Below are positions 1-64,000 of a stretch of 64,000 bases of DNA, one piece after another. A program made the position numbers and the translations under genes. The notes below the pieces were generated by a model, which was not told where the DNA came from, did not search any database, and worked only from the letters and a program-made list of their open reading frames with translations. Position 1 is the stretch's first letter, and the number at the start of each line of letters is the position of its first letter. Source of the stretch: Bilabrum cf. latius. Its lineage: Eukaryota. The DNA lies in contig OZ237748.1 in assembly GCA_965178125.1 (NCBI GenBank), forward strand, positions 806,001-870,000. The letters are read 5' to 3'.

Positions 1-1592
1 AAGGCGAGCACTTGTATATGATTGTTCTATTGGAGTTTCGAAACTTCTTCAGCCCTACTGCTGCTCGTATTCATGAAATGATGTGTCGAATTGCACTGTC
101 GATGCGTATTGCTAGATTCTGCACACTGTGTTGCATGTCACGTATCTTGTTGGTACAAGTACACTGTATCGCAGTCCGGGTGGACGTGCTACGACTCTGC
201 TCTTGTCATGAGCAAACCAACAATGGCATAGCTCATGTCAGGCTCTGGTGTATATGGTCTGCAGAAAGGCCCTTACGAAGTGAGGTCGTGTGCGTATATT
301 TCGTTGTCACACAGTCGGCCTGTGCACCATACTTGAAGGATCACTAGCCAGAATAAGACGTCATTGCCTCGCCTCTTTGGATGCAGCTGCCGTCCTCCAT
401 AGCAAGAATCAAAGCAGCAGCAATCGACTGTCCAGGATAGTGTTTTGACTCATTTGTTGCGTCTGCCAACGGTACGAAGCAAGACGGGGTAAGAACTGAC
501 AACCATATTGCATCCATTCGTTCTTCTGTATGCCATGCAGACTAGTCTTGCAACGTTACATCAAGTATAACCATTGTCACTTTTCCTCACAGGAATTGCT
601 TTCGCCAGTCTAGCGTGCTACCATGAGCAAGCACAGCCGCTGCGTCAAGGCGCTTCTGGAGTATGGCGTCCCAGGCGACGAGACGACCGATGTAAGGCAT
701 GGCTCAACTACTAATCGTTGCCTGTCTGAACCACCGGGGTTGGTGGACATCAAGCACTGTACGTCCTTCAATTTTGGATAGTGGCCCTAACACCAGCTTC
801 ATAAGTGTCGGGATTTCACCCGTGGCGCTTTCCCCCCGCAGTACGGTCAGAGTTTAGTGCATCTTGCGACTGGGAGTGTCGGTACGATCCAGGAGCTCAT
901 CAAGGCTGGATGTTCAGTGCATGGGAATGACAGGGTATGGCATGGTCAATGTGCAAGACGAGTTATGCTAGATGTGCGCACACTAGATTTCTCGTATATG
1001 TTAGCTGCTTTTCCATTGTGGTGCAGGGCGGGAGCACACCTCTCCATGATGCAGCCGGCAAGGGCTGCATGGCATCATGTGCTCTACTAGTAGAGGCAGG
1101 ATGCGATCGATGCGCGACAGACAACGTGAGCACAATATGTGCAAGAGTTCCAGTGATTTCGGGACAGCAAGTCGTATGCATTGCATTGCTCGATACCGTG
1201 TGCCCATAGCAATGTGAACGGTTGTAGCCATTGCGAACATTCTGCATTTGCAGGACGGTCTACGGCCTGACCAGATAGCATCGAGGCGGGGATACCACTT
1301 TGTGGCACGTCGTATTTGGACCGTCCCCTCGCCGAGGTAGGTGGCCGTCATGCGGTGGAAAGTGGCGCAGCAGGCCAAGGTCGATTCCAAGCTCTTGTTC
1401 ATTTCGGCAGCATATGGAAGACCCATGGAGCTGCGCAAGAGGATGCACCACGGCAAGCTGGCCGGTGGGCTGACTGCTCGTCGGCCACTCTAGACAGGGG
1501 AAGGTGTGAGGATGGTAACTCCGTTGGAGGCAGCCAGACTTGGAGGGCATGACGAGTGTGTGAAACTGCTAGAGGATGCAATGGGGCGGTGA
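1..1592 (+). CDS. Multi-exon ankyrin-repeat protein with the shared C-terminal 'GRPMEL..GKLAGGL..PLEAARLGGHDECV' domain; 5' end probably upstream of the window
   Basis: GT-AG-bounded ankyrin exons, e.g. 593-691 (ELLSPV*RATMSKHSRCVKALLEYG) and 1027-1125 (GGSTPLHDAAGKGCMASCALLVEAG). The last exon (~1254-1592) reads through TAG at 1338 and 1491 to TGA at 1590-1592 and matches five paralogues. Confidence 0.8.
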
Positions 1593-1858
1593 TCGGCTAA
1601 AGCCTAGGATAGGCGGGGCTGCTGGAGAATGTCAAGGTTATATATCCTGGAATATTGACTATTGTGGCAACTTGTAATAGATTTACGTTAAATCGGATCC
1701 TATAGGCTGTATAGCCACTATGGATATCCTTAGTACGCGACTGCGCCACTTGAGTGAAATGCCCAATACTTACGGGTTACAGACAGGCGTAGATTCTACG
1801 GGGGGGGGGGTAGCTACCCTGTGCGTCGGCGACCAAAGCAGCGATCCGACTATAAATA

Positions 1859-2697
1859 TCACCTATTGGCATGAAAAGCCATCGCCAGTATTTCCACACA
1901 CCTCCCGTGACCGTTGATGAATGCAGCCTCCATCGGGTAAATTGGCGTCTTGCTCCCAGGAAGCGTGTCCAGCCTTCGCAGGCCGCCTGCCAACCGGCCT
2001 AGCCTCATCCGCTTAGAGAGCTCCATTGACCTGCCTGAGCTAGCTGCGGTAAACATTGCTCGGGCGTCACGATGCGCATCGCCAGCGCGGCGCCACTTCA
2101 TCAGCGCAGCTCGCCGGCAACTGCACCTGTATTTCTCCTACTCTCCGGCCCCTGCAACTGCGCTCGTGAACCATGGCATGGTGAACACACAGGCGAAGGA
2201 AACCCCCCAATTTCATCCTGTGGTCCATGCACGTCACCCTGCTGGTCGCTTGGTAGCTGCGGGTAGGGGAGAATAGGGTGCAGGATGGGATACGTGACAA
2301 CGGCTGCCGCTGCTGCTGTAAGAGCTGTGTAAGAGTGAGGGCTACGGGCGCTTCAAGCGTGCCCAAGAGAGACAAAATACGGCATGAACAACACAGTACA
2401 TACAGTGTGCGTTCTGCTGGATGCAATGCTGCTCGCGGCAGCAACCTGGAATGCGCTTAGCCTTTTGCCGGATTGAACACCGCTACCAGCGCCTAGATCT
2501 AGCCAGAATACTGGCAGAGAGCAAGTTGCGCTGCAGGTGCTCACGACTGTTTCGCGTTGTTCCTCAGGCGTGCTTAGTTCCGTGAGTTCTCTGCATTTCT
2601 CAGTGTCACCGTGACCGGCCGAATCGAACCCGGGCCCACTGCCAGAGGAGGGCAGCAGCATGCGGTCTGGTGTCCCAACGGGCACGCCGTCCTGCAT
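1859..2697 (-). CDS. Gene carrying the same ankyrin-like C-terminal domain, in opposite orientation; 5' exon structure tentative
   Basis: MKWRRAGDAHRDARAMFTAASSGRSMELSKRMRLGRLAGGL...PMEAAFINGHGRCVEIL ends at TGA 1859-1861 and is clearly paralogous to the other five copies. Upstream exons are inferred only from splice-like signals. Confidence 0.6.
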
Positions 2698-3284: not shown

Positions 3285-6200
3285 TCATGCCACGTACCGC
3301 AGCACCTTGGAATCGCCCTCGTCCCTCTCGAGATAGTCCTGGTCGATCAAGCCGTCGATCCTGGTCCGGATCTGTCTCACGTCTGCGTCAAACAGCCGGA
3401 TCTGCCTCGAGACCTCAGGAATGAGTCCCTGCATGTCCAGCTGTTTCCTTGCCTTCATCACCCTCACGATGGCTGCGTCGATCACGCTCCTCCTGTCCAG
3501 CTTGTAGTCCTCCTTTGCGGATTTCTTGGCGGACAGGGCGAGGAACGGCACGCTGATGGCACGGCGGGGCGAGGCGAATCCAGCGCGCGGCATGATCCTG
3601 TCCTTCTCCTCCAGCTTGCCCTTCCGCAGCCGCATGGTCGCTGCCTTGTGCTCCGGACTGCCCTTGGTGAGAGCCTCCGCGGGCTGCACCTCCAGGATGC
3701 AGCAGTGCTTCGCGAAGGCCATCGGGTGGATGCAGCGGATCGCTTGTTCCCTGGGCAGCTGCAGGGCACCGGCAAGGTCGGACACCGTCGCACTCGTCAC
3801 ACCTGGGCTGGCCCTCCAGAGGGCGTCCAGGGTCAGCAGCGCCACGGCCTGCACGGGCTTGACCGTCAGCGACAGGGTCTTTCCCTTGGGCGTGCAGTAC
3901 CCCACCTCAGCACTGCCTTCCACCAGAGACAGCTGCAGCTTGCGCTGGTCCTGCGTGCTGCTGTATGCCTCGCTCCAGAATGCCCTTGCGATTGACATGG
4001 CCGGGGGCAGGGGGATCTTGTCCAGGCCCTTGGGACCTGGGGGCCAGTAGGCGTTGCACAGGATCCGGGCTTCCAGGTCGAAGGCGCGGGCCGACGCCAT
4101 GGCTGTGCTTGAGCCGGAAGAGGGGTCAAGCCCCGACTGCCGCAGGGCGTCGCCGTCCCTCCAGATGGACCCCGTCCCACTCGTCACACCGCGAGACAGC
4201 CGGGCCACTCCTTCTGCCCCCCACTGCTTCTGCCACTCCGCCATGAGCACCCTCGAGTTCACGAAATCGCCGATCATGTTCTCCAGCGAGTTGGTGAACT
4301 GGGCCCCTTCCGCTTCTTTGAGTCTGCTGATCATCTGCTTCTCGGCATCTTGTGACGTGCTCGTCCCCGCCAAAAGGCGAGTTCCCAGGCCGCTCTTGTA
4401 GGCCTGCTTGAAAAGGTCCTTGTCGGACAGCTGGTCAAACAGCCCCCTGATGTCCTCGATGGCCTCACCCAGCTCCTGGGCCGTGAGACGGTCCGTACCG
4501 CCACCGGTGGCACTGCCGTGCAGTGCACCCGCCGCGCTGGCCCCACCAGCGCCGCCCCTCCCCCCAGGTCCAGCACCGCTGCCCCCGTCCGCGGCCGCGA
4601 GCAGCTCCCCCAGCCCGGCTGGTCTCCTCCCCTTGAGCACCATGTCGGCGAACGAGGCCAGCTGGGAGAACGTGGGGTGCGGGTCCGAAGGCCCCAGAGC
4701 CTTCATGTTGACGGCTATCTTGAGCGCCTCTGTGGCGGCCCTCTGCACGGTCGTGTCCCCGCCGCAGATGACCATGCACACGTGGTTGTACCTCCGGCGG
4801 AGGGCTACAAGTGCACCGACGAAATCCGGGTCGTGTGTTAGGGCGGCCTTGGCGGCCTTGACCTCTTTTGCCCTGGCAGCGGCTGCCTTCTTCTCCTCGT
4901 CCGTCTTGGGTGGGCCTCTCTTGCCACCAGCAGCACCGCCGCCGCTTTGACCACCCCCAGCGGTGGTGGCAGCCTTGACTCGCGCCCTCCTGTCCTTGCA
5001 GATCTAAAAGCCCTCTCTGACCACCCTGTCCCTCACCGCCTCGGCAAACCGGACCCTGCCCTTCTGCTTGGTCACCAGTGTGACGAGTCCCCACAGGTTC
5101 CGCAGCTCCTGGTCCCTCTCGCCCCCCGCTGCGAACAGCTTCTCCACACCCCCTAGGCCGGCGGTCTCCTCTTCACCACGGCCAGCCGCCCCCTCCGAAG
5201 AGGATAAAGATGAAGATGAAGATCCCTTCGTGCTGCTGGACCTAGACAGAGCCTCGGGCGATCCAAGCAGCCAGTCCAGCTGGTCCTGCACGAGCACCCG
5301 CACAAGGCCCCTCCTCAATTTCGGCTCCGTGCTCCGGTTGAGGAACAGTCGGGCTCGCTCGATCTCGTTCTCGATGGATTTGTGCACCGCATCGCAGTAC
5401 TCGAGTGCATTCATGGTCTGCGTCCACACCCGGGACTCGGCCCCGTAGGACTCGTTGGTGAGCCTGAGGAAGGGCGCCTCAAAGTCCATCTCGTAGGTCC
5501 TATTTCTGTGCGCCGTCTCTTCATTGTCCGCCACCCGTAGGACGTCCTTCCTGTTCTTGAAGTCGATCCTGGTCCTTGCCACCCCCATGATGAGGAAGAG
5601 CCGCACGATGGACCGCAGGAGGGAGTGGTCCACGGCCTCCCCTTTCCGGTCCCTCTTCACCAGCTGCTGCACGGTCTGGACCAGGCCGCCTTTGAGCACG
5701 TCGAATACCAGCTGCGGGAATTGAATACACGAATGGGGAGAGTAGAGAAGAGTAGAGAAGAGTGCATGCAAGCCGTGGATCGTGTAGAATCACAGGCACT
5801 AGAGGAGGACGCAATGGCAACGGCATGGGGATGGGAGCAGGGGCACAATGGGAGGGGGTCAGGGCGAGAGGGGGGGAGAACTGCGCTCGTCACACCAGAC
5901 GCATTCATCTCTATTGCCCCCCACAAGCACTCGCTACACACACCTCCGCACTCGTCACACGCATGCTCATGCTCACGTCTTGGAAGATCAGCACGGCCTC
6001 GGACATGAGCGTGGGCTGCTGCCTGGAGGACTGCATGCCCGCGTCTTGCCTGTCGAGATACACGAAGAGCCTCCGCATCCAGTCGGAGAACAAGAGGTGT
6101 TCCTCCCACTTCTCTCTGAACATGACAAGGAAGGCCTCTTGGGACTCCTGGGAGGTGCCTCGGGCGGAGGCCTCCACCAGGGGGACCACGGCGTGCTCGT

Positions 6201-6837
6201 ACAGGTACATCTGGACTTCCCTGCGGTAGATGGTGTGGATGTCCGAAGTGTTCATGTCCGGGTCACGGCCGTATTCTCGCGATCCGATCGAGTACAGCAC
6301 GCTGTGCACCTTGCTGGAGATGAGCTTCTGACGAGTGGCCGCACCACCGGGGCGGACACTGCCGGATGAGGATGCTGCCGCTGCCGCTGCCGCTGCCGCT
6401 CCGCCCGTCGCTGCACCGCTGCTGCTGCTGCTGCTGCTGCTACCGCCCTTGCCCTTGCCTTTGCCTTTGCGCCACCCGCCCCCCCCAGCCCCACCCCCCC
6501 GTAGAATCCCGTCATCGAGACGCCTGCGGATGGGGTAGATCCCGTACCGCATGATGGCAGCCTCGTTCTATCCCCCCGCGCCGCCGCTCAAGAAATCAGT
6601 GGCCCCTCCTAGCCCGCCCGTTGCCCCGGACGAAGAGCTGATCTGCTCGTGGATCTCCGCCACGAACTTGTCCTCCTGCTCGTCCGTTGGCATGATGTAT
6701 TCTTCGCTGAGCGGGGAGGGTCCGTGCCTTGAAACTAGATCGTCTGCCTTCTTGCGGACGTTTCGGTACTCTGGGCGCGTCTCCCTGGGCCCGCGCCCGG
6801 GAAGCTCGGATATCGGTGCACCGAATGCTGCTGCCAT
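3285..6837 (-). CDS. Cullin (cullin-1-like E3 ligase scaffold); exons 6837-5977 and 5711-3285; two in-frame TAG
   Basis: Cullin motifs MRRLFVYLDR, FQD|LVF..DRKGEAVDHSLL, DFEAPFL, SDKDLF...LGTRLL...DAEKQMISRLK, and the neddylation domain DAAIVRVMKARK...IDQDYLERD. One GT-AG intron at 5976-5712. TAG at 6568-6570 and 5004-5006 have the same frame open on both sides. Ends in TGA. Confidence 0.93.
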
Positions 6838-7713: not shown

Positions 7714-9334
7714 TCACGTGAGCATGAAAGGCAGCTTGTCCCCCGCCACGAACCCCCTCTCCGCCCCCTCCTTCCCGATCACAACCGTCCGGATCACACC
7801 CCCAGAACTCCCATCCCTGGCCATCGCATGCGCAAGTGCACCCCTCACGAAGTCCAGGCACTCGTCCTTGGACATGCCCTCCCGGTAATGAGCGTCGCAG
7901 TAGCCGTACAGGTAGGTCGACCCGGAGCCTCCGATCGAATAGCTCTGCCTCACGAGGGTCCCCCCGAGCGGCACGGCGTACACCTGCCCCCCCTCTACCT
8001 TGTCATACCCGGCCACGATGATGCCAGCCATGAGCCTGTCCTTGTTCTCGTAGCAGATGGCCCGGAAAAGGTTGCTCACCGCTTTGACAGTGGGGGGGGA
8101 GCCCTTCGTCAGGGCGTGTTCCTCGGCGTACCGGCGCACGGAATCGGACACGGCCTGCGTGTCGGCGGCTGATCCGGAGCGGCAGCAGTAGACGCTGTCC
8201 GTGATGGCCGTCAGCTTGTCGCTTACCCTGTTCGCCACGTACACGCCCGTGGAGGTGCGAGAATCGGCTCCGAGTACAACGCCCCCTTCGAATGCCACGG
8301 CAATGATTGTGGTCTGCGTGGGTGGAGCAAGAGAGCAAGAGGGCATGAGGTAGGTGATGAGTGGGAGAAGAAGATTAAGATGGGGGTATGGGTATGGGTG
8401 TGGTTGTGGTTGGGGGCAGGTGCAACTCTAGTCACGCATGGTAGGGCGATGGCGAAGGGGACAGCCCCCGCACCAGCACCGCACGCTGGGCCAAATCATC
8501 GGCGCTGGCAGCAGCACCTCCTGTGCACTGTGCACTGTGCACTGTGCACAGCTTGCTTGCTTGCTTGCCCGCTTGCTTGCTTGCCCGCTTGAAGGATAGC
8601 TGCCGGCCAGCCTCGTCGGTGCAGCATTCTCAACTAATTGATACAAGCACAATAACACTGGGAGGGAGGTTCATGCCCCCCTTCTTCCTCTCGGCCTCTT
8701 CCTCTAACACCACGTTGGGAATGAGAGGACTGGCGATGCAGCGCTATCAAGAGCACGGCTTCCGTCGGTCGCAGCAATCTCGAACATGCCAGATCGTATC
8801 AATAATGCATAATACAATCATTTCTCTATGGCCAATACGAAGATTACAAGGCGCAGCCACGGCCTTGTCTCGATAATCAACCGATTGAACCAAGTCCACC
8901 AGGGATCGCTCATTCGCACACCCATCACCAAACGACAAACACCAAGCAGCAAAGCACCTACCAACATGCATGCAATACAGCTGCTATGTTAATTCACTTC
9001 ACCGCATATGACTACCATCGTGGTCCGCCATCCGATTCTATCGCGATACCGAGGTCCAAGCTTTGATGCTCGTCCAACCAAACTCAGCAACACAAACGTC
9101 AAAAAGCACACAGTGCCGTACATATTCAGTCATATACATTGAATCAGTTCTATGGCTCGTGGTAGCAGTAGTTTGCACACTTACTCCTGTGGAAACCTCC
9201 TTGTCAGCAGGAGCACCTACGGCAGCATCGGAAGGTCTCGCTACGGCCAGCTCTTTCGGATCCTCGGGAGTCGCAGCAGCATGAGAATGCCGCTCAAACA
9301 ACGCAGCAGAAGAAGAAGAAGCTAAAGCCGCCAT
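7714..9334 (-). CDS. PSMB6: 20S proteasome subunit beta-1 (PSMB6/PRE3 orthologue); exon 1 9334-9185 (propeptide), exon 2 8313-7714
   Basis: Propeptide ends ...EVSTG at donor GTAAGT. After acceptor CGCAG the frame reads [35 protein letters not shown]...RSGSAADTQ...[10 protein letters not shown]...[10 protein letters not shown]. Ends in TGA; no TAG. Confidence 0.95.
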
Positions 9335-9539: not shown

Positions 9540-9544
9540 AAAAA
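9540..9544 (-). terminator. RNA polymerase III oligo-T terminator of tRNA-Val
   Basis: Five T immediately after the tRNA 3' end on the minus strand. Confidence 0.75.
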
Positions 9545-9617
9545 TATCAGTGGTGGGCTTCGATCCCACTACCTCTCGCGTGTGAAGCGAGCGCTCTACC
9601 AACTGAGCTACACTGAC
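9545..9617 (-). tRNA. tRNA-Val(CAC)
   Basis: Cloverleaf: acceptor GTCAGTG/CACTGAT, D-arm GCTC-AGTTGGTA-GAGC, anticodon arm CTCGC-TTCACAC-GCGAG, T-arm GTGGG-ATCGAAG-CCCAC, discriminator A, followed by TTTTT. Confidence 0.93.
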
Positions 9618-10249
9618 AGATAGATGTGGCTCGATTTGAAATAATACAGACCATATCTTCATTAGTTTTGATATCCTTTGACGAATGAAAGTATAGTCGG
9701 GCCAAGTCGTTTTACAATGTATACCGACTACTGTTATGGGAACATGAGTACTTCATATTTTTCTCAATGTTGGACCTACAATTCACGTGCTTCGAGTCTT
9801 TTTTGCACCGCGATCCTTCAACTTTTATAGTATCGAACTTTCATCAAAAAGCAGAGAACCTGGCACACACAGCCCGAGAATCGCAGGTCTGAAGTCTCAT
9901 TACAACGCTATCCGAATAGTAACTACGGCTCTATTTGTAAGATATGTTAAAATGCGTGTCTTAAATGAGTAGCTGTGTGCATCTAAGCTTCGTTGCTGGG
10001 GATTCGGCAGGCCAAACTCTTTGGAGGATGCGCGGTATCCCGCCCGAGTCTGTCAAGCTGTTCGGGAATACGTTACTTCCAACTTGCCATTTAGATTTAA
10101 CTCGCATTCATGTCTCTTTCGTATCGATTGTAGCCGTACCCATCCCTTCGCAGCGCGCCTCGAGCAGAACCAGCTTTGTAGCTCGCCACTTCTTACTCCA
10201 ACAGAGACGACTTCAGCACGTATCGTTACACAGAACTCTATTCGTTGAT

Positions 10250-12620
10250 ATGTCAGGCTCATCTTCATCGACTTCGAAACCTACTACCGTGGCAGACTCC
10301 GCAGCGGCACCAGCCCCAGCTACTGCTCCCGCTGCCTCTAGCACTGCTTCTGCTTCCCACCCGCATCCGCACAAGAGCCCAGCTGCTCTCGGGCACCCCC
10401 CGAGGCAGAGGGCTATTTCCAGCGGGACAGGTGGCAGGGCATCGGCCTCGGAGGCATCGGCATCGGCCACAGAGGCCGCCGTTGCCGGGGGGGGGAGTGG
10501 CAGCAGCGCCGTGGCCGATGGAGCCTTCGCCGCCGGCTCCCCTCGCGGCGACGATTCCGATTCCGAGTCCGCGGCGCTGTACCCCGGATGCCCCAGGCTG
10601 CAGGCGGCCCGCGCCGCCGGCGAGCCGACCGAGGCCGCCGAGGCCCTGGTGCATCGCATTGCAGCGGCCATGGCCGAGGGGGCGGGTCCCTCCTCCTTCG
10701 GCACGCAGGCGTTCGCCGCCGCCATGGACGCGTCGGATCCTCTGCAGCCAGTGAGGGAACAGTTCCGGTTTCCGTCCACCGAGGCGGGGGCGGCGCACCG
10801 CTCGTCAAGGGTGGGTAAACCGGCGGTGTACCTGTGCGGGAACAGCCTGGGCCTGCAGAGCAAGCAGTCGGCCGACGAGGTGGGCATGGAGATGGCCAAA
10901 TGGGCCAGGCTGGGGGTGGAGGGGCACTTCAAAACCGACACCCCGTGGGTGGCAGCGGACGAGAGTGTCCGGGGGGGGATGGCCAAAGTTGTCGGCGCGC
11001 TGCCAGAGGAGGTGGTGTGCATGGGCACGCTGACCGGCAACCTGCACGCCTTCATGGTGCCTTTCTACAGACCGGAAGTAGGAACAGCCGCCGAGGGCGC
11101 CGCGGGTGGCGCTGATGGGTCAGCGGAACCGGCCCCGGCGCCGCGCACGAAGATCCTGATCGAGGGCAAGGCCTTCCCCTCGGACTATCACGCGGTCGCC
11201 TCGCAGGTGCAGGCCCGGGGCCTCGATCCCGCCGTGCACGTTGTCAGGGCAAGAGCGGGGGACGCGGAGCGGTACGGAACCGGGAGCGGCGCCGCGCCCT
11301 CGAGCAAGGGTTCCGCTGCGGCCACGGACGAGACAGCCGAAGAGTCGGGCAGTTCCGGTTTCAGCGCGGAGTCGGGGTTACCGCCGAGCACGGAAGATGT
11401 AATCGCGTGTATCAAGCACCACGGCAATACGCTAAGCTTGGTGCTGCTGGGCGGCCTCCAGTACTACACCGGGAGATTCTACGACGCCCCCCGTGTGATC
11501 CAGGCGGCCAGGGAGGCGGGGGCCAATGTGGGTCTGGATCTAGCGCACGCTGTGGGGAACGTTCCTCTGGTGAGTCACACGCAAATGGCAGGTGGTTCCG
11601 GGTATATAGACCAGCTGTCACACTGGCACGGACTTGCATTGCGCGGCCCTGCCGCGTGAGGTGCATTGCACTGCTGCGCATGTCCTACCTGCTTCTGTCG
11701 CCGCCGGGCAAGTCCTTATTACAGGATCCCCTTCGCCCGTTTTGGCTCCGAGTCGGTCCAACTGCTGCTTGCTGTACCCCGCGCATACCCCCGTCATAGC
11801 CTCGCCACATTCGTCACATCCTATTCGCACTCGTCACACCCCGCAGAGGCTCCACGACTGGGCGCCGGACTTCGCCTGCTGGTGCTCGTACAAGTACCTC
11901 AACTCGGGCCCGGGGGGCATCGCCGGAGCCTTCCTGCACTCGTCACACTTCAAGGACTCGGAATCGCTCGAGTCGATGCCCAGGCACGCGGGGTGGTGGG
12001 GCCACCGGAAGAGCGACCGATTCGGCATGGCGCACCACTTCAAGCCGACCCCCGGCCCGCAGGGATTCCAGTAGTCCAACCCCTGCGTGCTTGCGGTGGC
12101 GTCCCTGAGAGGTTCGCTAGGAACCTTCGCTGACGCGGGGAAGCTGGGGCTGTCTCCAGCCGAGATGGAGGCGGACGCAGCTGCGGTTGCATCCGGTAAG
12201 CCGGCGCCCCATGGTCCTATGCGCGCGATCCGCCGGAAATCGCTGGCTCTGACGTGCTACCTCGAGGTGCTGATCCGCACCCGTCTCCCCGGGGTCACTA
12301 TTCTGACCCCCATGGCCATGGAGAGGCGGGGCGCACAGCTGTCCCTCGAGTTCCCAAGGGGGGTCCGGCTGGGACGGGTGTATAAGCTGCTTTAGAGGGA
12401 ATCCGTGATCGTGGACGTGCGCGAACCTTCGGCGATGAGGGTGGCACCGGCCCCGCTCTACTGCTCCTACCGCGACTGTGCGGAGTTCGTGAAGGTTCTG
12501 GGGAGGTGCCTGGCCGAGGACGAGGAGCATCGGGCGAAGGAGGAGGAGGCGGGTGAGGTGCAGGAGGATGGGGCCGGTGTGAGCGGGGCGGCGGCGTCGG
12601 TGGAGACCAAGGGGAGCTGA
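10250..12620 (+). CDS. KYNU: Kynureninase (PLP-dependent); exons 10250-11569 and 11847-12620; two in-frame TAG
   Basis: YLCGNSLGLQ, KILIEGKAFPSDY, DLAHAVGNVPL|RLHDW..DFACWCSYKYLNSGPG (PLP lysine), GWWGH, GFQ*SNP (TAG 12072-12074), RGAQLSL, LL*RESVIVDVREP..RVAPAPLYCSY (TAG 12393-12395), TGA 12618-12620. The start is inferred; the long Ser/Ala-rich N-terminal extension makes it uncertain. Confidence 0.93.
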
Positions 12621-13275: not shown

Positions 13276-15336
13276 GGGTCATGCACTACGAGCCGCTGCC
13301 CAAAATGGCAAGATGGCCGTCATGAGGGCTTGCCTGGATTCGGGAGCGGACATCGAATCTAAAGATGGAGTGAGATTGAGCATGACAAGCCGCGCTTTAT
13401 GGATGCATCATGAGCTTTTGGCAATGTGAAGACAAGTAGGTCCGTGACGCGGTAATCAAATAGCTTGCCAGTGATCATGAAGTATACCCCCACAATTGGA
13501 GCAAGGCCGAGTGAATCTCGCTGCATGCTTTGTTTCCCTAAGTCCATGCCGGTCGCTGTTCTCATATCAAGCTGATTGTGTGACGTTCATGCAAGTCATT
13601 GGAGGCGTCTGCCTCTACTAGTAGCCAGCCAACGTTCGTGAAACCGGCAGCTGCCAATCGAATCCACCAAAGCTCGATGCACGCCATCGATTCTTCGGCA
13701 AGCCAGAGTGGGGGGCAACTCGTGGAAGCTGATTTGATTCAGTTGCACTGCTGATTTGCGTACATGTCAGTGCATTGAACCTTTGTATGGCTTGCTTTCC
13801 GAGCCGGGCCACCAGTGGATCCTCGGACGCGGCCCGGTCTGGCATAGGAACGACCAAAGGGACTAGAAACTTGGATAAGTTGACAAGAATGACATACATG
13901 CTAGTCCATGAAGCTGGTCCTGCATGGTCCCCAGCATGGGATGCCTCTCTCTGCGTCTGTCGTTCTAACCCGCCACCAGGTTGGTCCTTTCACTTGGGAT
14001 CTTTCCTCCATGGCTACCTTCCAACGGTCATTTATTGCCCGGATGCGTCGCAGCTTGGTTGGACAGCTTCGTTTTGTGCCGCGCTGTGTGGCAGGACTGA
14101 CTGCCTGAAGCTGCTCATCGAAAGGGGCGCCAACGTGAACGCTGCCGACAGGGTAAGAAAAATAGATAGATAGGTGCCGTTTTCTTGTTCCCCCCAAGCC
14201 CTCAGCACCCGCCCAATACACGCACTCCAAAATCCATGCACGACCACCGCAAGCACACCTCGTACTACCCCAAGCCCCTGCTGCTCGTCCCCCGCCGCAG
14301 TCTGGCGACACACCCCTCCATGCGGCATGCATGAGTGGGCACAAGGACTGCCTGTAGATGCTGATCTAGAATGGTGGGGACGTAAATGCGGTAGCCAAGG
14401 TGAGAGGCATGTACCGAGTAATGTGTGCGTGTCTGATCGGCTTTGGATTGGTTACTCATGGGTCCGTTACCGGCTGAAGGGCCCCTTCGCGGTGCTTCCG
14501 CCGCGTTGATGGATTGAAGCTAAACCCTTGCGCATGCACCTCGCGTTCTAAATACGTTGTTGAACCATGGTTCTGACATAATGGCATGGTCTCCAGTGTG
14601 GAATTCTGCGAAAGGAGATACTGTATACACTCAGGTTCCCGAACACTTTGATCGATCGATTGATTGTTTGAAGTAATTATGCTGCTCCATGGCCTATCCA
14701 TACCCTTTGATTCATCCGCAGAATGGTTACACTCCCCTTCACTATGCAGCCTGCAAAGGCAAGACCGCTTGCGCCACTATCCTCATGGAGGCAGGGGCTC
14801 GCAGGGACATCAAGGACAACGTGAGCTTCCGTAGCTGTATTGCAACAGAACTTGATACACATCTGTCCGTGCTATTGCTAGCTACATTAAAGAACCCTCC
14901 TCCACAAGTCCATTCCCTTTGCATCCCACCACACCATGCGCCCCTCGCCTTTTGCCTCTGTTCCTCGCTTCTTTTGATCGAGCAGAGTGGTATGACACCC
15001 GCAGAGGAAGCCGACTATTAGATCGCTTCGTTCGGTTGCACAGAGGTTGCTGCCGCCATTCGGTCTTTCAAGCCAAGACTCATACTCAGAGCCGTTCGCT
15101 GGAGGAGGGCAGTGGAGGCCAAGAGGGACGCTGCGATGGTGTTTCGTGCCGCGAGCGAGGGCAGGCCCATGGAGCTGAAAAGGAGGCTGAGGCTAGGCAA
15201 GCTAGCTGGTGGGTTGGAGATGAAGGGGATGGCGACAATTGAAGATGGAAGCTCTAGGCTGGTGCTTCCACTGGAGGCAGCCAGGCTGGGTGGGCACGAC
15301 GATTGCGTGAAGCTGCTGCAGGATGCCTAGGGATGA
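13276..15336 (+). CDS. Ankyrin-repeat protein (tandem paralogue 1 of 3); start not resolved
   Basis: Exons of about one repeat each at ~13276-13369, 14054-14152, 14301-14399 (SGDTPLHAACMSGHKDCL*MLI*NGGDVNA) and 14722-14820. The final exon from ~14985 carries the shared domain and ends LLQDA*G-TGA (15334-15336). Confidence 0.8.
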
Positions 15337-18437: not shown

Positions 18438-18744
18438 AGCACAGGCTGGGTGGGGACGATGATTGCGTGAAGCTGCTGCGGGAGGCCATGGAATGAAGCA
18501 CAGGCTGGGTGGGCACGATGATTGCGTGAAGCTGCTGCGGGAGGCCATGGAATGAAGCACAGGCTGGGTGGGCACGACGATTGCGTGAAGCTGCTGCGGG
18601 AGGCCATGGAATGAAGCACAGGCTGGGTGGGCACGGTGATTGCGTGAAGCTACTGCGGGAGGCCATGGAATGAAGCACAGGCTGGGTGGGCACGATGATT
18701 GCGTGAAGCTACTGCGGGAGGCCATGGAATGAAGCACAGGCTGG
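18384..18744. repeat. Six tandem copies of a 59-bp unit containing the last codons and stop of the ankyrin gene
   Basis: Unit AGGCTGGGTGGGCACGAYGATTGCGTGAAGCTGCTGCGGGAGGCCATGGAATGAAGCAC starting at 18384, 18443, 18502, 18561, 18620 and 18679. Confidence 0.95.
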
Positions 18745-19394
18745 TACTTCCGCCGCCGCCGCCCACCAGAGCGGGCCCCGTTGGCTGGAGGCAGCCCCAA
18801 AGCAGCAGCAAGCCATACCGTGTCACTATTATTGGTCGGGATTGTTTCAGATGTCAATCAAGATACCTTCACCGGCATTCAGACACGCGGCGATTGGGCC
18901 CGCCGGTGCTCGGCCTCTCACAGCCACAGCCGCTGCTTTTCCGCTCCATTATCACCACGCTGCCTACAGGTCCGGCTACCGCGAGATCCTGAAGATTGTC
19001 CTCTTTCGCACCGCATTTAGGCATAACTTACTTTGTTTCTATTGCACTAGATTGGAGTGGAGCGAGTGCCCTGAGGTCAACAGCGCTGCCACTTGGGCTT
19101 GGGCTTGGATCCTTGTTCCGGTTTCGTGCACTTGCAGCCGTGCCGACGGTCCACCATTCCCCATTGCATGACTTTTTGTGGTTGATTTGGTGACCTAATT
19201 GAAATGTGAGAGTAGCTGATTCATACCTAGCCAGGTTTTTCGTATCAGTAGATTTCGGCACTGGGTCTGCCTTTCAATTATTGCTACTGTGTTCTGATCG
19301 GCCGCAATGCTACAATAGTATACATTCGACTTGGTCATCGCGAGCTTTTCGCCTGCCATATCTTAGAATATTTGCTGAAAATCTCGTTTCATAG

Positions 19395-54977: not shown

Positions 54978-56984
54978 TCACTCATCCTACCGCTCTTCGC
55001 CTTCATCCTTCTTCTCTTCATGGTCGTCATCAGCATGCTTCGAGGCAGCAATTTGCAGCGGGGCTACCTCTCTTGCCTCTATCCACTCCCTGCCCCCTTT
55101 CTCCACCACTCGCCCATGACTTGGCATCGGCAAGCTCATGCACTCACACGCCCCGGCATGCCCGTCGATTTCACCGGTGATCATCATCCTCTCTGTGGCT
55201 TCACCTAGCAGCTCCGCGCGAACGTCATTGTACTTTAGGCTGGCATACCGGTGGAATAGCGTTGTGGCCGCCCTGTCCGAGCAACTGCACTTGGTGCTTA
55301 TCCTTGCGACCTTCCACGGTCCTTGCCTGGCTCCCCTTCGGCGACTTGAACCAGAACGCTCGTCCTCGTCCTCATCTTCTGTACTCCCCCCAAGGTCTTG
55401 CCCATCGCCAACGTGCTCTTGGCAGTACCGACACGACTCGCCCAGATACAGGAGGGGTCCTTTGCACGCAAAGCAGCCGTCTATGGCGGGCCTGATAATC
55501 CTGGTCTGCCGTCCCACAACCCGCTTGCACGACAAGCAACCCCACCGATGACGAAACACGGGCGTGTAGGCGTGCTTGATGCGCACTGGGTACTCTGGCT
55601 CGGTCAGTGCTGCGTGGCACCTCCAATCATGGAATAGAGGTCCGTGTCCGCGCTCCCGCACGCGGTTCACAACGCAAACGGCGACGTGGCACATTTCGTG
55701 CAGCAAGGAGCAGGCCATCTGCTGATGCGTGGATAGAACGTTCGTGCTGAGTTCGATTCTTATCGACTGAACCACGGCATCTTCCGGCCAGTGGACGCGA
55801 GTTTTTCCGGCGATCGCAGCGAGACGGGTATTCCAGCTGATCTCAATGTGGGGGCTGCCACTACCACTGCCACTACCCGATGATGCAGGTCCAGACCGTG
55901 TACCACGGGATTTCCAGTACATGGCCGGTGGCAGCTGACCGCTGAACACTGTCCTGTTGAACCTGCGGTACAGCTGCATTGCGATCATGGCACGCTTGCT
56001 CCTGCATGCAGGCAGTAGCGTGGGCGATACTTCGACACCTTTTTCTGCACTAGATCTTCTGCCGGGTGAAGAACCAGCCGAAGCAGCAGTCGCAGCGACG
56101 GTTGCATCCTTGGGACCGGCTTGGCTTGCCTTACGCTTCGTTTGGCCGGTGCCAGATTGGCGCGTGGTGCGGGTCTTTTTTCTGCCCTTGTCATCGCCAT
56201 CCTCGTCGTCGTCCTCGTCCTCGTACGCGTCCTCTATATCGCAACTAGGGCTGTGCCCGGCTCCAGTGGAAGCACCGGAGCCGCCCCAGCGGCTGCCCGT
56301 ATCGCTGCCCGTGCCCCTGTGCCTGTCGATGTATCTGCCGCTGGGCCTGCCAACGCCGAAGCCAGCGTTAGCACCAACATCGCCCAGTTGCTACCTCGTC
56401 CTCCTCCACCTTTTGGGCCCAAGGGCTAGAGGCCTGTTTCGATTGACGCGACCCCACTGGCATGGAGGAGGAGTCCGCACGTCCCCTGCGCCCCGGGAGG
56501 AGTTCTCTGCAGTCTTCACCTCCCGTGCGCGCGAGTGCCCAGCTCTGGCCTTGGCCCTAGATTCGGCTCTAGATCTGGCGCGAGCACGTGCCCTCAGTCT
56601 GACCGTTCTGATGATACCAGTGGTGCCGCTCGTTCCAGTTGGCCCGTCTGCCCCGCGCACCGACTGGACGGTGTCTCCGTTGCCTCCGACAGTGCCAGTG
56701 TCCCCGTTCTAGTCGTCCGAGGGATCACGAGGCTCCACGCTGGTCGCTGCGGCACCAGCTTGGAGACCTTCTCGGCTGTATCCCGCCTCTCCTGGGACAC
56801 GCATACTGCCGTCCGAATCGGACTCGGTGTCGGGCGGTATCTCGATCGGGCTCTGGCTCCTGTCCGTGGCGCCCGCATGCGCGCTAATCATGTACTGCGT
56901 ATTAGCTTCAGTATATGAAAAGCTCGGGCAGGGACTGTCATGCGTTTGGCTTTGGCCACTCAGTTGTTCCGATGGAGAAGACAT
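54978..56984 (-). CDS. GCNA/ACRC-like SprT (Spartan-family) metalloprotease, copy 1 (668 aa, 3 in-frame TAG)
   Basis: Disordered acidic/basic N-terminus read through TAG 56709 and 56391, then LYRRFNRTVF..LP, IEISWNTRL..AG, IELS..VL, LLHEMCH (HExxH), HGPLF, a CxxC..CxxC zinc ribbon and a degenerate HMG-like segment. Ends ER*DE-TGA 54978-54980. Confidence 0.85.
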
Positions 56985-57842
56985 GGCGAGCACCGAATAC
57001 ACCAGACGCTGTCTGCACTACCTCTCAGGCTAAAAATCGCGACACCGCTTCGTTAATTCGGGCGGTAGATTGGTATCAGGGTCCTTATTGCGATATTATA
57101 AGCACGTGAGTACAGGTTGCACCCCGGTGTACAATTTCCTGGTACCGCTACCAATTCAGACCGCGAACGGAGCTCTGACTACGCTAGGTGTACAGTAGCA
57201 GCAATTAACAATCGGACCATATATAGTTGCATCGACAACTTACGACTGTCGATTACAAGTTCCGATTTCTTCTTATTTGGTGATATTGTGTGTCCAGTTG
57301 CACTTCTGCCAACTGGTGCGAAGTCGTATCGCTTCTCAGATTATTACTGATAGCATTAGCAGTAAAATTGATACGGTTGTTGAGAGTGCCATCAATCTTT
57401 GCAGATGCAGTCAGGATGAGCGACGGATATAGGCGAAAGCTCATTTCGGAGTTCAGGACGGCTGGTTCAGGCGATGTTGTATCCTGTAGATATTTTCTGC
57501 TATACAAGGCTTTATTTCAGTCCACATTATCTCTCCTAATATTACACATGTGTTGAATTGAACCATTTGCTAGAGAAAGGTCGCTTTGGCACCAGGTGCA
57601 GGGCTGACCAGGCAGATAGGACTTCCATACGCGATCCACTACAACTAACTTGCGTCAGGTTAGTTGAATCTTGACAATACTGATACTTTTGAACAAAACT
57701 AAAACAAGCTTAGATTCATATTGCATCGTGTCAGATAAAGCTTCCGTTACGTAGGACGCTTGAAGCCTTGCCATTCCCCCTCCAAGCCGCAGTCGGGAAG
57801 CAGCACCCTTCACCGATGAGTGCGCGTCTGTGCCGATTTCGT

Positions 57843-60143
57843 TCACTCGATCCCGTTCTCTTTGCTTCCGTCCTTATCGGTCGGCTGAATTGGCTTCTCG
57901 TCCCAGACGGCACCTGCACCTGCACCTGCACCTGTTCCTGCACCTGCACCCGCACCTGCACCTACACCTGCACCTGCACCTGTTGTACCTGCACCTGCAC
58001 CTGCACCTGCACCTGCACCTGCGCCTGCACCTGCGCCTGCGCTTGCTGCACCACGCGAACGCCGCCGCTGCTCCGCCTCCCGAGTTTCCATCCACTTCTT
58101 TCCGCCACGGTGGAAAAACCTCATTTGCAGCTCCTCGATGACGGCGCTGTGGCCTGGAACAGGGAGGCACCGACAGCGGCGGCGCGGCAGGGGATGGCGG
58201 GTGCTGCACGCCGCTTCGGTGCCACTTTGGCCAGCACCCGCCATGCAACTTTGGCCAGCACCCAGCTCTCTCTCAATGGCAGCATTCGTCAGCTCCTTGC
58301 GCACATCGGTATACTTGAGGCAAACGTACCGGTGAAGCAGAGAAGGGGCATGGCGAAACGACCTGCTGCACCGCGTCGTGACCCTAGCACTCTGCGGAGG
58401 CCCGTGCTTGGACCGACCTCCGCGTTTCCCGTGATACTGCCCACCTCCGGATTGCCCCTCACAGGACCGACAGGCCTCGCCGATGTACACGAGTGCCCGT
58501 TTGCAGCTCCTGCATCCATCCACGGCCGGGTCAATGCTCTTGCTTTGCCGGCCAACGACCTGCTTGCAGAACACGCATCCCCACATGTGCTTGTGCACGG
58601 TGACGTACCTGTGCCTGACGGAAACGGGGTACTCGGGCTCTTCAGTGCCCGCGCGATCCTTCCAGTGATGGAACCGATGGCCGTGACTTCTCTCCCGGGT
58701 ACTGTCGATCATGCTAACGGCCATGTGACACATCTCATGCAGGAGGGTACACCCCAGCTGGTATTCCGTTGACAGGATCTTCGTGCTGAGCTCGATCCCG
58801 GCCCATTGTACCGGTCCTAGGGGAGCGGTCCTAGGGGGCTCTCGAGCCGCAGGATCGGATGACGAAGGGTTGAGCTCGCCTGCGGATGCAACCTGGGACA
58901 TCCTCATCCTGATTGCCCTCCCCGCAGCAGATCGTAGCCGTGGGTTCCAGCTCAATTCCACCCGTGCACATGCCGTGGTCCCGCTGGAGCTGCTGGCGCT
59001 TCTGGTGCTGCTCTTGATATCAGAGTGCACGGCCGGTGGCAGCTGACCGCTGAACACTGTCCTGTTGAACCTGTGGTACAGCTGCAGTGCGATCATGGCA
59101 CGCTGGCTCTGGCATGCAGGCAGTAGTTGGCCATCAGCACTCGGACCCGGAGCCCAGACCGAGTCCTTGTGTCCTCCATCCACGTCGTCCTGGAGCATGG
59201 GGGGGCATTTCCCCCCGCATGGGGGGGTTCTTATGGGGGTTCCCTTGTGCGATGGGGTCTCCAGAGACGCTCCTGTCGAGGTCCACCTGACCCGGGGGTC
59301 ACCGTGCGCACTACCATGCGATGCATCGTCGCGCTCTACCCGCGCCTTCTTCGCCCCTCGAGTTGTGCCGTCCATATCGTCAGTGTCGCTGTCAGTGTCG
59401 CTGTCAGTGTCGTTGTCGCTGTCGCTTTCATCCGCGTCAGGGTCGGCGCCCCACCTCGCCTTGATGCGCCCATCGGCCTCCTTGGTTGCGTCGGCGCCAG
59501 AGCCGTGCCCAGCCACGAGCCCCATTGCCCCTACCACCTCCCCCACGGGCTCTACTCTCCGCCTCTTGTCGCCCAACGCAGCCTTGGGCGCGTATATTGA
59601 AGGCCCCTTTCCATGGATGGGTACAGCGGCGGCTGGGCCTCCACGGCTCGGGGCAGCGGTTTGGGCAGCGCCGCTGTCGTTTCCGTGGCCTGATCGCGCT
59701 GACCCATCGCCGTCTCCAACCCCGCTGCCGGGTGCTGAGGAGGCAGCGCTGGCGGGGAATGCGTCTTCACCGACCGGGCTGCCTGACGGTTCTGCGCTTC
59801 TCTTGACGAGTGCGGGATTGTATGACTCGGTGCCCCCCGTGTCGATGATTCCGCTGATGCGGATTCTTCCACTGGCAGTCCACCGGATGGCGCGTACCTC
59901 TCCTGGGCCTGCTGGTAGGTCTCGTTCATCGGCATTGTCGGCGTCCTCGGTACTCCACCTCCTCCCTCTTGACCTCCTCACCCTTCTCCTGGCGGGGGCT
60001 GGGGCCATCATGTGCGAGTCCGAATCAGAGTTCTAGTCAGGGTCCGAATCCCAGATCAGGGCGGAGCCAGATATGCCTTGGCTTGAGCTCGTATTCGCTT
60101 CGTCTTCACTGGCGCCGTCAAGTTTGCCGGACTAAGATGACAT
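57843..60143 (-). CDS. GCNA/ACRC-like SprT metalloprotease, copy 2
   Basis: The 722-aa ORF has LLHEMCH, HGHRF, CVFC..CRSC and an HMG-like segment. It extends 44 codons upstream through two TAG to ATG 60143 (MSS*SG, matching the MSSPSE start of copy 1). Ends in TGA. Confidence 0.85.
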
Positions 60144-61852: not shown

Positions 61853-62135
61853 TAGTTTTAATCTTCTTCTTCCACAAGTCAGCGCAACGAAGCTGCCAGT
61901 GGCTGGATTTCGTGCTCTCGGTCAATTGTAACCAATTGAATGTAAACTCGACTGTCTGCATTTTCTAAATTATATTATATCACGATGCCATACTATAGAT
62001 ACAGTTGTTGAATTATTTCTGTCAGAAGTGATGCTGTAACATCATTGACGAATGCAGTTCACAAGTGCCGGCAACCAGCTCCATCCACAAGTTGCAACCG
62101 GCCCAGAAAAACTTTCAAGAAGAAGATTAAAACTA
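61853..62135. mobile_element. Candidate MITE: 17-bp TIRs flanked by TA
   Basis: TA|GTTTTAATCTTCTTCTT (61853-61871) ... AAGAAGAAGATTAAAAC|TA (62117-62135), a perfect inverted pair with an AT-rich non-coding interior. Confidence 0.5.
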
Positions 62136-62753
62136 TGAGATCCGGAGTCCGGACTCGGCGGTCCGCGCTGCGCCGCTGTCTGGCCGCTGGCAGGCGGCGC
62201 CGCGGCCGCGCCGAATGTCGATTTGCCGGCTAGGCGCTGGTGCCTGGTTTGGGCTGCTGCGGATAGATATCCAGCAGCTTTCCTACGTATTGCAATTTTA
62301 GTGTGTTTTAAATCCCACTCAGTGCTGAAATTTGTTCTTGCGCCTGGTCTTATTGCTGGTCTGTGTTGATGCAGCTACATCGAGCTTTTGGCAGCACAAT
62401 CAAAAATTTGAACTGTCACACGGTTTCCAGCATACTATACCGGCAGTCGTATATACTCGAATCGAATTGCGATACTAATTGTAAACATGCATTAAATGCT
62501 CGTTTTGTCAAGATCCTGAGCATCAGGTACCACACGAGACAGGCTTACAATATGACCTGTACTACTACTAGTCCACACTTATGAATCCATTAAACTATAA
62601 ATATTGTAATGGTTGACTACGTTACCGAGACCGCTCTGTAGCTAGACTTTTCGTCCGACCTCTCTGGACAAAATGTGAGGCAGGGAACTTGCGTGATACA
62701 TTGCGCTGAATACGTGACAAATTGTAGATTTAATAAACATTCCCCGTGGTCGC

Positions 62754-64000
62754 TTAGTGCCGACCCCTCTTCGCCCCGATGGTCCCGTCGTCAGCGTACC
62801 CACCGGCGCCCCCGTCATGATGGTCGTCATCGTCGTCCTCATGATTGCGTTCGTGCCAAGGGCCTCCAACATCACATGCAAATTCCACCCTGATACATGT
62901 ACCACACGTCCTGCTCCTCGTCCTCCTCCTCATTCGACCCCTGCTCCTCATCCCGCCGCCCGGCAGCAACACACACATCGCAACGCACACAGTGTGTCCT
63001 TCGTCGTCATCCTCATCCTCATCGTCATCGTCGTCATCGTCATCATCGTCACTAGAATCCGAATCCACGTCAACGTCTTCAACGAATTGGAACTCCTCGT
63101 CCTGCACAGCACCGCCGGGCACTGCCTGCGCCTCGTCCTGCACAGCACCGCCGGGCACCTCCTGCTCCTCGTCCTGCACAGCACCGCCGGGCACCTCCTG
63201 CTCCTCGTCCTGCACAGCACCGCCGGGCACTGCCATCTCCTCGTCCTGCACAGCACCGCCCGGCACTGCCTGCTCCTCGTCCTGCACAGCACCGCCGGGC
63301 ACTGCCATCTCCTCGTCCTGCACAGCACCGCCGGGCACCTCCTGCCCCTCGTCCTGCGCAGCACCGCCGGGCACTACATGCTCCTCGTCCTGCACAGCAC
63401 CGCCGGGCACTGCCTGCTCCTCGTCCTGCACAGCACCGCCGGGCACTACATGCTCCTCGTCCTGCACAGCACCGCCGGGCACTGCCTGCTCCTCGTCCTG
63501 CACAGCACCGCCGGGCACTGCCATCTCCTCGTCCTGCACAGCACCGCCGGGCACTGCCTGCTCCTCGTCCTGCACAGCAACGCCGGGCACTGCCTGCTCC
63601 TCGTCCTGCATAGCACCGCCGGGCACTGCCTGCTCCTCGTCCTGCACAGCACCGCCGGGCACTGCCTGCTCCTCGTCCTGCACAGCACCGCCGGGCACTG
63701 CCATCTCCTCGTCCTGCACAGCACCGCCGGGCACTGCCTGCTCCTCGTCCTGCATAGCACCGCCGGGCACTGCCTGCTCCTCGTCCTGCGCTGCACCGCC
63801 GGGCACCTCCTGCTCCTCGTCCTGCACAGCACCGCCGGGCACCTCCTGCTCCTCGTCCTGCACAGCACCGCCGGGCACTGCCATCTCCTCGTCCTGCACA
63901 GCACCGCCGGGCACCGCCATCTCCTCGTCCTGCACAGCACCGCCGGGCACTGCCTGCTCCTCGTCCTGCACAGCACCGCCGGGCACTGCCTGCTCCTCGT
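62754..64000 (-). CDS. Acidic tandem-repeat protein (partial; runs off the window end)
   Basis: About 25 in-frame copies of AVPGGAVQDEEQ/M, then a poly-Asp tract, a basic patch and the shared C-terminus; stop TAA 62754-62756. Confidence 0.65.
   Translation of the reverse strand, partial: EEQAVPGGAVQDEEQAVPGGAVQDEEMAVPGGAVQDEEMAVPGGAVQDEEQEVPGGAVQDEEQEVPGGAAQDEEQAVPGGAMQDEEQAVPGGAVQDEEMAVPGGAVQDEEQAVPGGAVQDEEQAVPGGAMQDEEQAVPGVAVQDEEQAVPGGAVQDEEMAVPGGAVQDEEQAVPGGAVQDEEHVVPGGAVQDEEQAVPGGAVQDEEHVVPGGAAQDEGQEVPGGAVQDEEMAVPGGAVQDEEQAVPGGAVQDEEMAVPGGAVQDEEQEVPGGAVQDEEQEVPGGAVQDEAQAVPGGAVQDEEFQFVEDVDVDSDSSDDDDDDDDDDEDEDDDEGHTVCVAMCVLLPGGGMRSRGRMRRRTRSRTCGTCIRVEFACDVGGPWHERNHEDDDDDHHDGGAGGYADDGTIGAKRGRH
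63094..64000. repeat. 36-bp coding minisatellite (~25 copies)
   Basis: Unit CTCCTCGTCCTGCACAGCACCGCCGGGCACTGCCTG with substitutions only and no frame-breaking indels seen. Confidence 0.97.

Follow-up and report, generated by a model that had tools for sequence, protein, structure and literature searches.

A variant nuclear genetic code in a 64-kb window of Bilabrum cf. latius, with UAG as a sense codon probably read as glutamine

UAG as an in-frame sense codon

The 64,000 nucleotides of nuclear DNA from the eukaryote Bilabrum cf. latius analysed here (GenBank assembly GCA_965178125.1, contig OZ237748.1, positions 806,001 to 870,000 of the forward strand; hereafter the window, with positions counted from its first letter) appear to be written in a variant nuclear genetic code, a reading to which we give a probability of about 0.8: UAG serves as a regular sense codon, most probably for glutamine (Gln), and translation still stops at UGA, the common terminator, and at UAA. 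A preliminary description made from the letters of the window had already claimed UAG as a sense codon, and we reach the same conclusion because of the frame statistics of its genes, spliced contigs that keep the TAGs, and orthologue alignments that run uninterrupted through TAG positions. The genes concerned encode a cullin, a kynureninase, several ankyrin-repeat proteins, three large low-complexity proteins (paralogues A, B and C), an FG-GAP/EGF membrane protein, and two SprT-like metalloproteases; a proteasome beta-1 gene (PSMB6-type) contains no TAG.

The frame statistics were obtained from ten curated gene models totalling 9,548 codons, with exon borders taken from splice joints where available. 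In frame, these models contain 56 TAG; they have no TGA, no TAA, and no frameshift, and this absence had been noted in the preliminary description. When the same sequence is read in frames +1 and +2, TAG occurs 66 and 65 times, TGA 158 and 185 times, and TAA 21 and 26 times, so that 65.5 TAG, 171.5 TGA, and 23.5 TAA would be expected in the coding frame. At the out-of-frame proportion of TAG (0.25), the probability that all 56 stop-like codons would be TAG is about 10^-33.6. In-frame TAG is therefore about as dense as an unselected triplet would be, whereas these frames have been cleared of TGA and TAA. Nine more in-frame TAGs, in ankyrin paralogues (611, 1338, 1491, 18318, 20458, 20937, 21027, 21648, and 39758), bring the total to about 65 across some 14-15 genes, in line with the over 60 that had initially been counted in about 14 genes. 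All ten coordinates that had been singled out at that stage (12072, 12393, 5004, 6568, 45482, 611, 14355, 14367, 39758, and 21648) hold TAG on the plus strand or CTA (TAG on the minus strand), and their frames were checked. Reading TAG as sense extends the longest stop-to-stop open reading frames (ORFs) to 1777, 1676, 1541, and 1073 amino acids, versus 883, 729, and 636 amino acids under the standard code. Taking TAA as sense did not lengthen the stop-to-stop ORFs of the window, and taking TGA as sense merely produced many mid-sized frames, as expected of the commonest stop triplet in DNA rich in guanine and cytosine (GC-rich).

The base following the 56 TAGs is G in 23 cases, A in 16, C in 13, and T in four, against a background of 41% G, 24% A, 21% C, and 14% T; this matches the ordinary make-up of first codon bases and thus reveals no special read-through context. 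TAG accounts for about 16% of the sum of TAG, CAG, and CAA codons. Its distribution is uneven, with four TAGs in the 2,043 codons of the cullin, PSMB6, and kynureninase genes versus 52 in the 7,505 codons elsewhere (Fisher p = 0.008). This 3.5-fold scarcity in three conserved housekeeping genes relative to the fast-evolving genes fits a reassigned codon that accumulates under weak constraint.

The location of TAGs inside conserved domains, also noted beforehand, is borne out by matches to the Pfam families Cullin, KYNU_C, Proteasome, SprT-like, Ank, FG-GAP, and EGF, of which those to Cullin and KYNU_C span TAGs. The Cullin domain is a single match (E 8.7e-69) over residues 3-678 of the cullin protein that crosses the TAG at residue 237, and KYNU_C covers residues 128-218 of the kynureninase and crosses the TAG at residue 184. 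An alignment of the kynureninase with a PDB kynureninase (E 2e-41) crosses both of its TAGs.

TAG codons retained in spliced transcripts

The transcripts of positions 2501-22500 were followed in four runs from studies other than that of the best DNA source. Spliced contigs came from three of these runs (X5, X7, and X8), representing at least two studies, and stretches without contig cover were not counted as evidence. Contigs of X5, X7, and X8 skip, on the minus strand (CT..AC), segments 5712-5976 in the cullin gene and 8314-9184 in the PSMB6 gene and, on the plus strand (GT..AG), segment 11569-11845 in the kynureninase gene and segments 14152-14299, 14398-14719, and 14821-14985 in an ankyrin gene. 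The cullin splice joint 5711/5977 is present in X5, X7, and X8, the PSMB6 joint 8313/9185 in three runs, and the ankyrin joints 14151/14300, 14397/14720, and 14820/14986 in X5 and X8. The confirmed introns measure 148-871 nucleotides and are not especially long, contrary to the preliminary description. Contigs of X6 run through the introns, and this run looks like DNA.

The transcript check that had been suggested for TAG gave a positive result. Among the joint-bearing contigs, X5 record 1 and X7 record 16 keep TAG 5004 of the cullin gene, the spliced X7 record 20 (10154-11568 joined to 11846-12650) keeps TAGs 12072 and 12393 of the kynureninase gene, and X5 record 5 keeps TAG 15019 of the ankyrin gene, in each case with no other letter. 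The 98-nucleotide exon that holds the ankyrin TAGs 14355 and 14367 is flanked by splice joints on both sides. Further contigs cover TAG 6568, and X5 record 6 (21069-21785) covers TAG 21648, again with no other letters. Because spliced contigs from other studies keep these TAGs without differing letters, editing, hidden introns, assembly error, and silent pseudogenes are ruled out for the cullin, kynureninase, and ankyrin genes.

Termination by TGA and TAA

Seven of the ten curated models are closed by TGA and three by TAA, and the four other ankyrin-family reading frames that we examined all end in TGA. Several of these ends coincide with those of related proteins: the cullin stops at TGA after ...RYVA, with the same last residue as its relative P0005, and the kynureninase at TGA after ...TKGS, with the same C-terminus as its orthologue P0015. 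In paralogues A, B, and C, TAA follows soon after a common GSKR(A/R)R motif. Since in-frame TAA is absent (0 versus about 23 expected) and TAA closes these three paralogues at homologous C-termini, a reassignment restricted to UAG, as first proposed, is supported within the window. None of the gene ends in the window calls for a TAG stop, although two TAGs lie close to a closing TGA (see below).

Amino acid read at UAG

The proposal that UAG is probably Gln agrees with the most constrained sites available. The cullin of a relative (P0005), 89% identical over 808 residues, has Q at the site of TAG 5004; the alignments with PDB cullins do not reach this TAG and hence give no residue information. 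The kynureninase orthologue P0015 (74% identity by BLASTP, 82% in the tree alignment) has both a lineage-specific insert and its C-terminus in common with the window protein, and it has Q at both 12072 and 12393. Site 12393 lies in the conserved motif LQRESVIVD, where six of the seven best-scoring kynureninase matches carry Q (P0015-P0019 and P0021; P0020 has I). In paralogue C, residue 566 is Q in P0008. Altogether, the nearest outside homologue has Gln at four of seven TAG sites (one in the cullin, two in the kynureninase, one in paralogue C), the others being Leu, Trp, and Ala.

Paralogues within the window provided additional sites. Most rows of an all-against-all BLAST of the window ORFs were noise from non-coding frames, and only the coding-frame rows of the ankyrin family and of paralogues A, B, and C were kept. 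Opposite TAG, these paralogues have mostly polar residues (E, R, K, H, and Q), plus M, S, T, and D, and TAG 611 stands at the position of the His in the TPLH motif that is usual in ankyrin repeats. Almost all residues found opposite TAG have a codon one step away from it (CAG, GAG, AAG, TTG, TGG, and TCG), as expected for a sense codon at weakly constrained sites. We compared candidate residues by a sum of BLOSUM62 conditional probabilities over the nearest homologue at the seven outside sites and over 12 paralogue sites. Over these 19 sites Gln ranks first, ahead of Glu (-2.35 log10 units, about 220-fold behind), Arg (-3.1), and Ser (-4.2); Leu is missing from the eight best residues listed and so falls below -5.7. 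Judged from this small sample of sites, UAG, given that it is a sense codon, would thus probably stand for Gln.

Alternative explanations

Several observations weigh against the reading of UAG as a Gln codon beside UGA and UAA terminators, starting with its base in a single 64-kb window, and we set them out here together with the explanations that they would favour. UAG might be a sense codon for another amino acid, with Glu as the strongest candidate, then Leu, Ser, Lys, or Tyr. Other amino-acid assignments of UAG exist in peritrich ciliates and in Blastocrithidia. At 12072, L is the family consensus of kynureninases (90 of 120 sequences) and Q occurs only in the close orthologue and three others, which makes this site weakly informative about residue identity. 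Residue 191 of paralogue C is L in P0009 (79% identical) as well as in paralogue B, residue 406 is W in P0008, and residue 281 is A, A, and D in P0011-P0013. The ankyrin paralogues mostly have E, R, or K opposite TAG, including E at 14367, 18318, and 20937, and on paralogue sites alone Glu ties with Gln (-0.04 log10). Both other low-complexity paralogues have TCG (Ser) opposite residue 846 of paralogue A, and in the FG-GAP protein TAG 42830 falls within a hydrophobic stretch at the N-terminus. Against these cases stand the Q residues at the most constrained sites in the 89%-identical cullin, in P0015, and in the best kynureninase matches at 12393, and the deficits of Glu, Ser, and Leu relative to Gln over the 19 sites. 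We therefore regard an amino acid other than Gln as unlikely.

UAG could also be ambiguous, a sense codon inside genes and a terminator in some contexts, for example near the 3' end of the messenger RNA (mRNA). Ambiguous codes of this kind occur in Condylostoma, karyorelicts, Blastocrithidia, and Amoebophrya sp. ex Karlodinium veneficum. In the window, two of the 56 TAGs, at 15328 in the ankyrin gene and 54987 in a SprT-like gene, lie two and three codons before the closing TGA, against 0.18 expected (P = 0.014). Chance may account for them, or they may be tandem stops or mark some remaining use of UAG as a terminator near gene ends; termination dependent on context is described for other protists in the pertinent passages of PMC12005148. 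Two cases are few, however, no gene end of the window needs TAG, and the TGA ends of the cullin and kynureninase genes are backed by orthologues. Ambiguity of UAG accordingly seems about as improbable to us as a different amino acid.

A third explanation dispenses with any dedicated decoder and invokes frequent read-through of UAG, as a leaky codon, by near-cognate transfer RNAs (tRNAs) for Gln, Tyr, or Lys in combination with a weakened eRF1. In its favour, and against a fully reassigned codon, neither ARAGORN nor Rfam found a tRNA(CUA) within the 64-kb window, and the residues opposite TAG are mixed. On the other hand, one gene holds 20 TAGs, so that its 1,776-residue product would demand near-complete read-through at each of them, and the 56 in-frame TAGs approach the 65.5 of an unselected triplet without any read-through context after them. 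We consider such read-through very unlikely. Finally, that the TAGs go untranslated, as lesions in pseudogenes, errors of assembly or sequencing, introns that escaped recognition, or sites changed by mRNA editing, is barely credible. Nothing specific favours it; the transcript evidence covers 2501-22500, and paralogues A, B, and C and the FG-GAP and SprT-like genes lie beyond this stretch. Against it, the frames of the models are interrupted by TAG alone and never by TGA, TAA, or a frameshift, and homology runs on across the TAGs. In the cullin, kynureninase, and ankyrin genes, it is moreover contradicted by contigs from other studies that have lost their introns and still hold the TAGs in identical letters. 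The run types behind these contigs are guesses (X5 was flagged as probably DNA, and none of the runs with matching sequence is on record as RNA), so that their status as complementary DNA rests on the splice joints.

Comparison with other variant codes

A code in which TAG is Gln and both TAA and TGA are stops follows the pattern of NCBI table 15. Codes with both UAA and UAG (UAR) read as Gln, which correspond to NCBI table 6 and occur in many ciliates, Hexamitinae, Streblomastix, ulvophycean green algae, and Amoeboaphelidium, resemble that of the window in the change from stop to Gln, with TAG likely derived from CAG. We rejected a UAR code for the window: in-frame TAA is absent where 23.5 would be expected, the ORFs gain nothing from TAA as sense, and TAA closes three genes. 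The codes in which all stops are ambiguous (Amoebophrya sp. ex K. veneficum, Condylostoma, and Blastocrithidia) likewise have unedited in-frame stops in expressed essential genes. They were rejected on account of the absence of in-frame TGA and TAA from the window models. Amoebophrya sp. ex K. veneficum, as characterised in the relevant part of its description, is AT-rich with all three stops in frame, in contrast to the GC-rich window with TAG only. Ciliates, too, offer a poor match, as already noted in the preliminary description: the window has none of the traits of their macronuclear DNA, being GC-rich and having spliceosomal GT..AG introns of 148-871 nucleotides and long tandem gene families.

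Closer counterparts are the nuclear codes that assign different meanings to UAG and UAA. Those named in the relevant section of PMC11687900 comprise the rhizarian exLh (Leu), Iotanema spirale (Gln), Scotinosphaera (Ser), Protocruzia tuzeti (Gln), an oligohymenophorean ciliate (UAA as Lys and UAG as Glu), and several phyllopharyngean lineages, for which Gln and Leu are given. Three of these, Iotanema, exLh, and Scotinosphaera, are the non-ciliate cases named there. The summary of such codes in the preliminary description was broadly right but incomplete, as this section adds Scotinosphaera, Protocruzia tuzeti, and the phyllopharyngeans. According to the same section, the fornicate Iotanema spirale, Protocruzia tuzeti, and two phyllopharyngean lineages share with the window a UAA stop and a UAG read, in the window most likely, as Gln. 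The window differs in being 57% GC with GT..AG introns of 148-871 nucleotides and in its main terminator, UGA, where PMC5304391 describes UAA as the dominant stop of Iotanema and exLh. In exLh, some phyllopharyngeans (UAG as Leu), and the green alga Scotinosphaera (UAG as Ser), UAG alone is reassigned and UAA remains a stop, as in the window. A Leu or Ser code was nevertheless rejected, with Leu at one and Ser at none of the seven nearest outside homologues and the values of -4.2 (Ser) and below -5.7 (Leu) given above. The non-canonical code treated in the pertinent part of PMC6733595 concerns plastid UGA and is not relevant to nuclear UAG. A full-text literature search returned no further UAG-only nuclear code and none reported in stramenopiles. 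This kind of code is already known, whereas its occurrence in this lineage is probably new.

Possible decoding mechanism and affinities

By analogy with the known UAG-only codes, for which the relevant parts of PMC5304391 and PMC11687900 point to a tRNA-Gln(CUA) unable to pair with UAA together with an altered eRF1, a mechanism of the Iotanema and Protocruzia type would be expected here. UAG would be decoded by a tRNA of its own, whose CUA anticodon can pair with UAG but not with UAA and which most likely would have arisen from a duplicated tRNA-Gln(CUG) through one anticodon change. The eRF1 of this organism would probably have lost its affinity for UAG; for Iotanema (T32G) and exLh (L69A), eRF1 substitutions are reported at residues in contact with the third base of the stop codon.

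Kynureninase gives a hint of the affinities of the organism. Cafeteria roenbergensis/burkhardae is the only named organism among the closest kynureninase clusters (P0018 cluster, 55% identical). A maximum-likelihood tree built from the C-terminal halves of 56 kynureninases pairs the window protein with P0015 (support 100/100) on a long stem, and this pair groups with P0021 and a Cafeteria clade at 99/79, below the starred support threshold. The placement by a kynureninase tree that had been suggested thus leads to the neighbourhood of Cafeteria without yielding a placement: kinship with Cafeteria-type stramenopiles is a weak hint from a single short gene, in which horizontal transfer or long-branch effects are possible. 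We tentatively suggest, at slightly less than even odds, a new and independent UAG-only change from stop to Gln in a GC-rich, intron-bearing, non-ciliate protist, possibly an ally of bicosoecid-type stramenopiles, for which the literature searched records no change of the nuclear code, and maybe with some residual termination at UAG.

Few nuclear codes give UAG and UAA different meanings, and each new case tests the coupling of UAG and UAA and the joint change of tRNA(CUA) and eRF1. In Iotanema and exLh, the suppressor tRNA and eRF1 could not be studied directly at the time these two were described, as stated in the relevant part of PMC5304391. Here, the existing genome assembly, together with the transcript data of several studies, would permit such work, and the sequenced relative with the 89%-identical cullin could serve to date the code change. 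There is also a practical side, anticipated in the preliminary description: the standard code truncates or splits nine of the ten curated models (all but PSMB6), as well as the other ankyrin paralogues, and any annotation, proteome, or phylogenomic set derived from a standard-code reading of this genome would be corrupted.

Gene content and repeats of the window

The GC content varies between 53 and 62% along the window and is 57% overall. The CUL3/CUL4-like cullin gene (3285..6837, minus strand) consists of exons 5977-6837 and 3285-5711 separated by intron 5712-5976, with in-frame TAGs at 5004 and 6568 and a TGA directly after ...RYVA; its protein also matches Pfam Cullin_Nedd8. The adjacent PSMB6-type gene (7714..9331, minus strand; exons 9185-9331 and 7714-8313, intron 8314-9184, TGA stop) matches Pfam Proteasome (E 3.8e-47) and PDB PSMB6 (E 2e-78). 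In X5, an unspliced contig over its intron (8284-9214) has a depth of 14 and the spliced form a depth of 208, which fits pre-mRNA or some DNA. Between the PSMB6 and kynureninase genes, near the 5' ends of both, lies a tRNA-Val(CAC) gene (9544..9618, minus strand), predicted by ARAGORN and matched by Rfam RF00005 with 63.7 bits. It is the sole tRNA gene and the sole Rfam match in the window, and it does not read UAG. The kynureninase gene itself (10250..12620, plus strand) has exons 10250-11568 and 11846-12620, intron 11569-11845, TAGs at 12072 and 12393, and a TGA stop.

The ankyrin family comprises about five genes, dispersed or in tandem (440-1592, 13700-21743, and 39272-40548), all on the plus strand. 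In the spliced member (14051..15336; 3' exons 14300-14397, 14720-14820, and 14986-15336; TAGs 14355, 14367, 15019, and 15328; TGA stop), the joined exons form one open frame. Another paralogue occupies 440..1592 (TAGs 611, 1338, and 1491), with a predicted exon structure. Two more, at 16158..21743 (TAGs 18318, 20458, 20937, 21027, and 21648), were assigned by homology to the spliced ankyrin protein; the second ends in a WW-like motif, and TAG 21648 immediately precedes its LPDGW. The paralogue at 39272..40548 matches Pfam Ank and Ank_2 and has TAG 39758 within an Ank repeat. The family has a C-terminal module in common, WRRAVEAKRDA...RLRLGKLAGGL...EAARLGGHDDCVKLL, from which one copy runs on into the WW-like motif. 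A very high contig depth at about 15.2-15.8 kb and again at about 20.5-21.2 kb suggests that many further copies exist elsewhere.

Paralogues A, B, and C form a tandem, lineage-specific low-complexity family on the minus strand (22061-37401), all closed by TAA: paralogue C at 22061..25282 (ORF of 1073 amino acids, 10 in-frame TAGs), paralogue A at 26013..31343 (1776 codons, 20 in-frame TAGs), and paralogue B at 32371..37401 (ORF of 1676 amino acids, eight in-frame TAGs). They share an N-terminal domain of about 350 amino acids, a central GILARM.SYSGESVDLLHSS motif, and the C-terminal GSKR(A/R)R motif, and otherwise consist of low-complexity GR, AG, poly-S, and poly-Q runs. No Pfam family matched any of the three. 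The relatives of paralogue C are only fragmentary (P0008-P0014), and the homologue search with the 1,776 amino acids of paralogue A gave one weak match (P0007, E 2.9e-4), low-complexity words having probably swamped the candidates.

Farther along, a type-I membrane protein gene (42623..46693, plus strand; TAGs 42830, 45482, 45707, 46244, and 46613; TGA stop) encodes FG-GAP repeats, a Ser/Pro-rich stalk, EGF modules, and a transmembrane segment (Pfam FG-GAP_3, 1.3e-14; EGF, 9e-09). Two adjacent SprT-like metalloprotease paralogues of the Spartan/Wss1 type, with HExxH and divergent, acidic, low-complexity N-terminal halves, lie on the minus strand at 54978-60143. The first (54978..56987; TAGs 54987, 56391, and 56709; Pfam SprT-like 8.7e-15) ends at a TGA three codons past its last TAG, and the second (57843..60143; TAGs 60033 and 60132; Pfam SprT-like 4.2e-16) likewise has a TGA stop. 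The window also contains three tandem arrays. One, at 47347-49735, has a period of 125/253/378 bp, and its 125-bp unit recurs about 19 times with 79-85% matches. A 326-bp satellite at 49972-53083 counts about nine copies with up to 98% matches and a strong AT skew. The third, a 36-bp minisatellite at 63093-64000, has at least 25 copies and continues past the window end, and its minus strand is an open frame with a 12-residue EEQAVPGGAVQD repeat.

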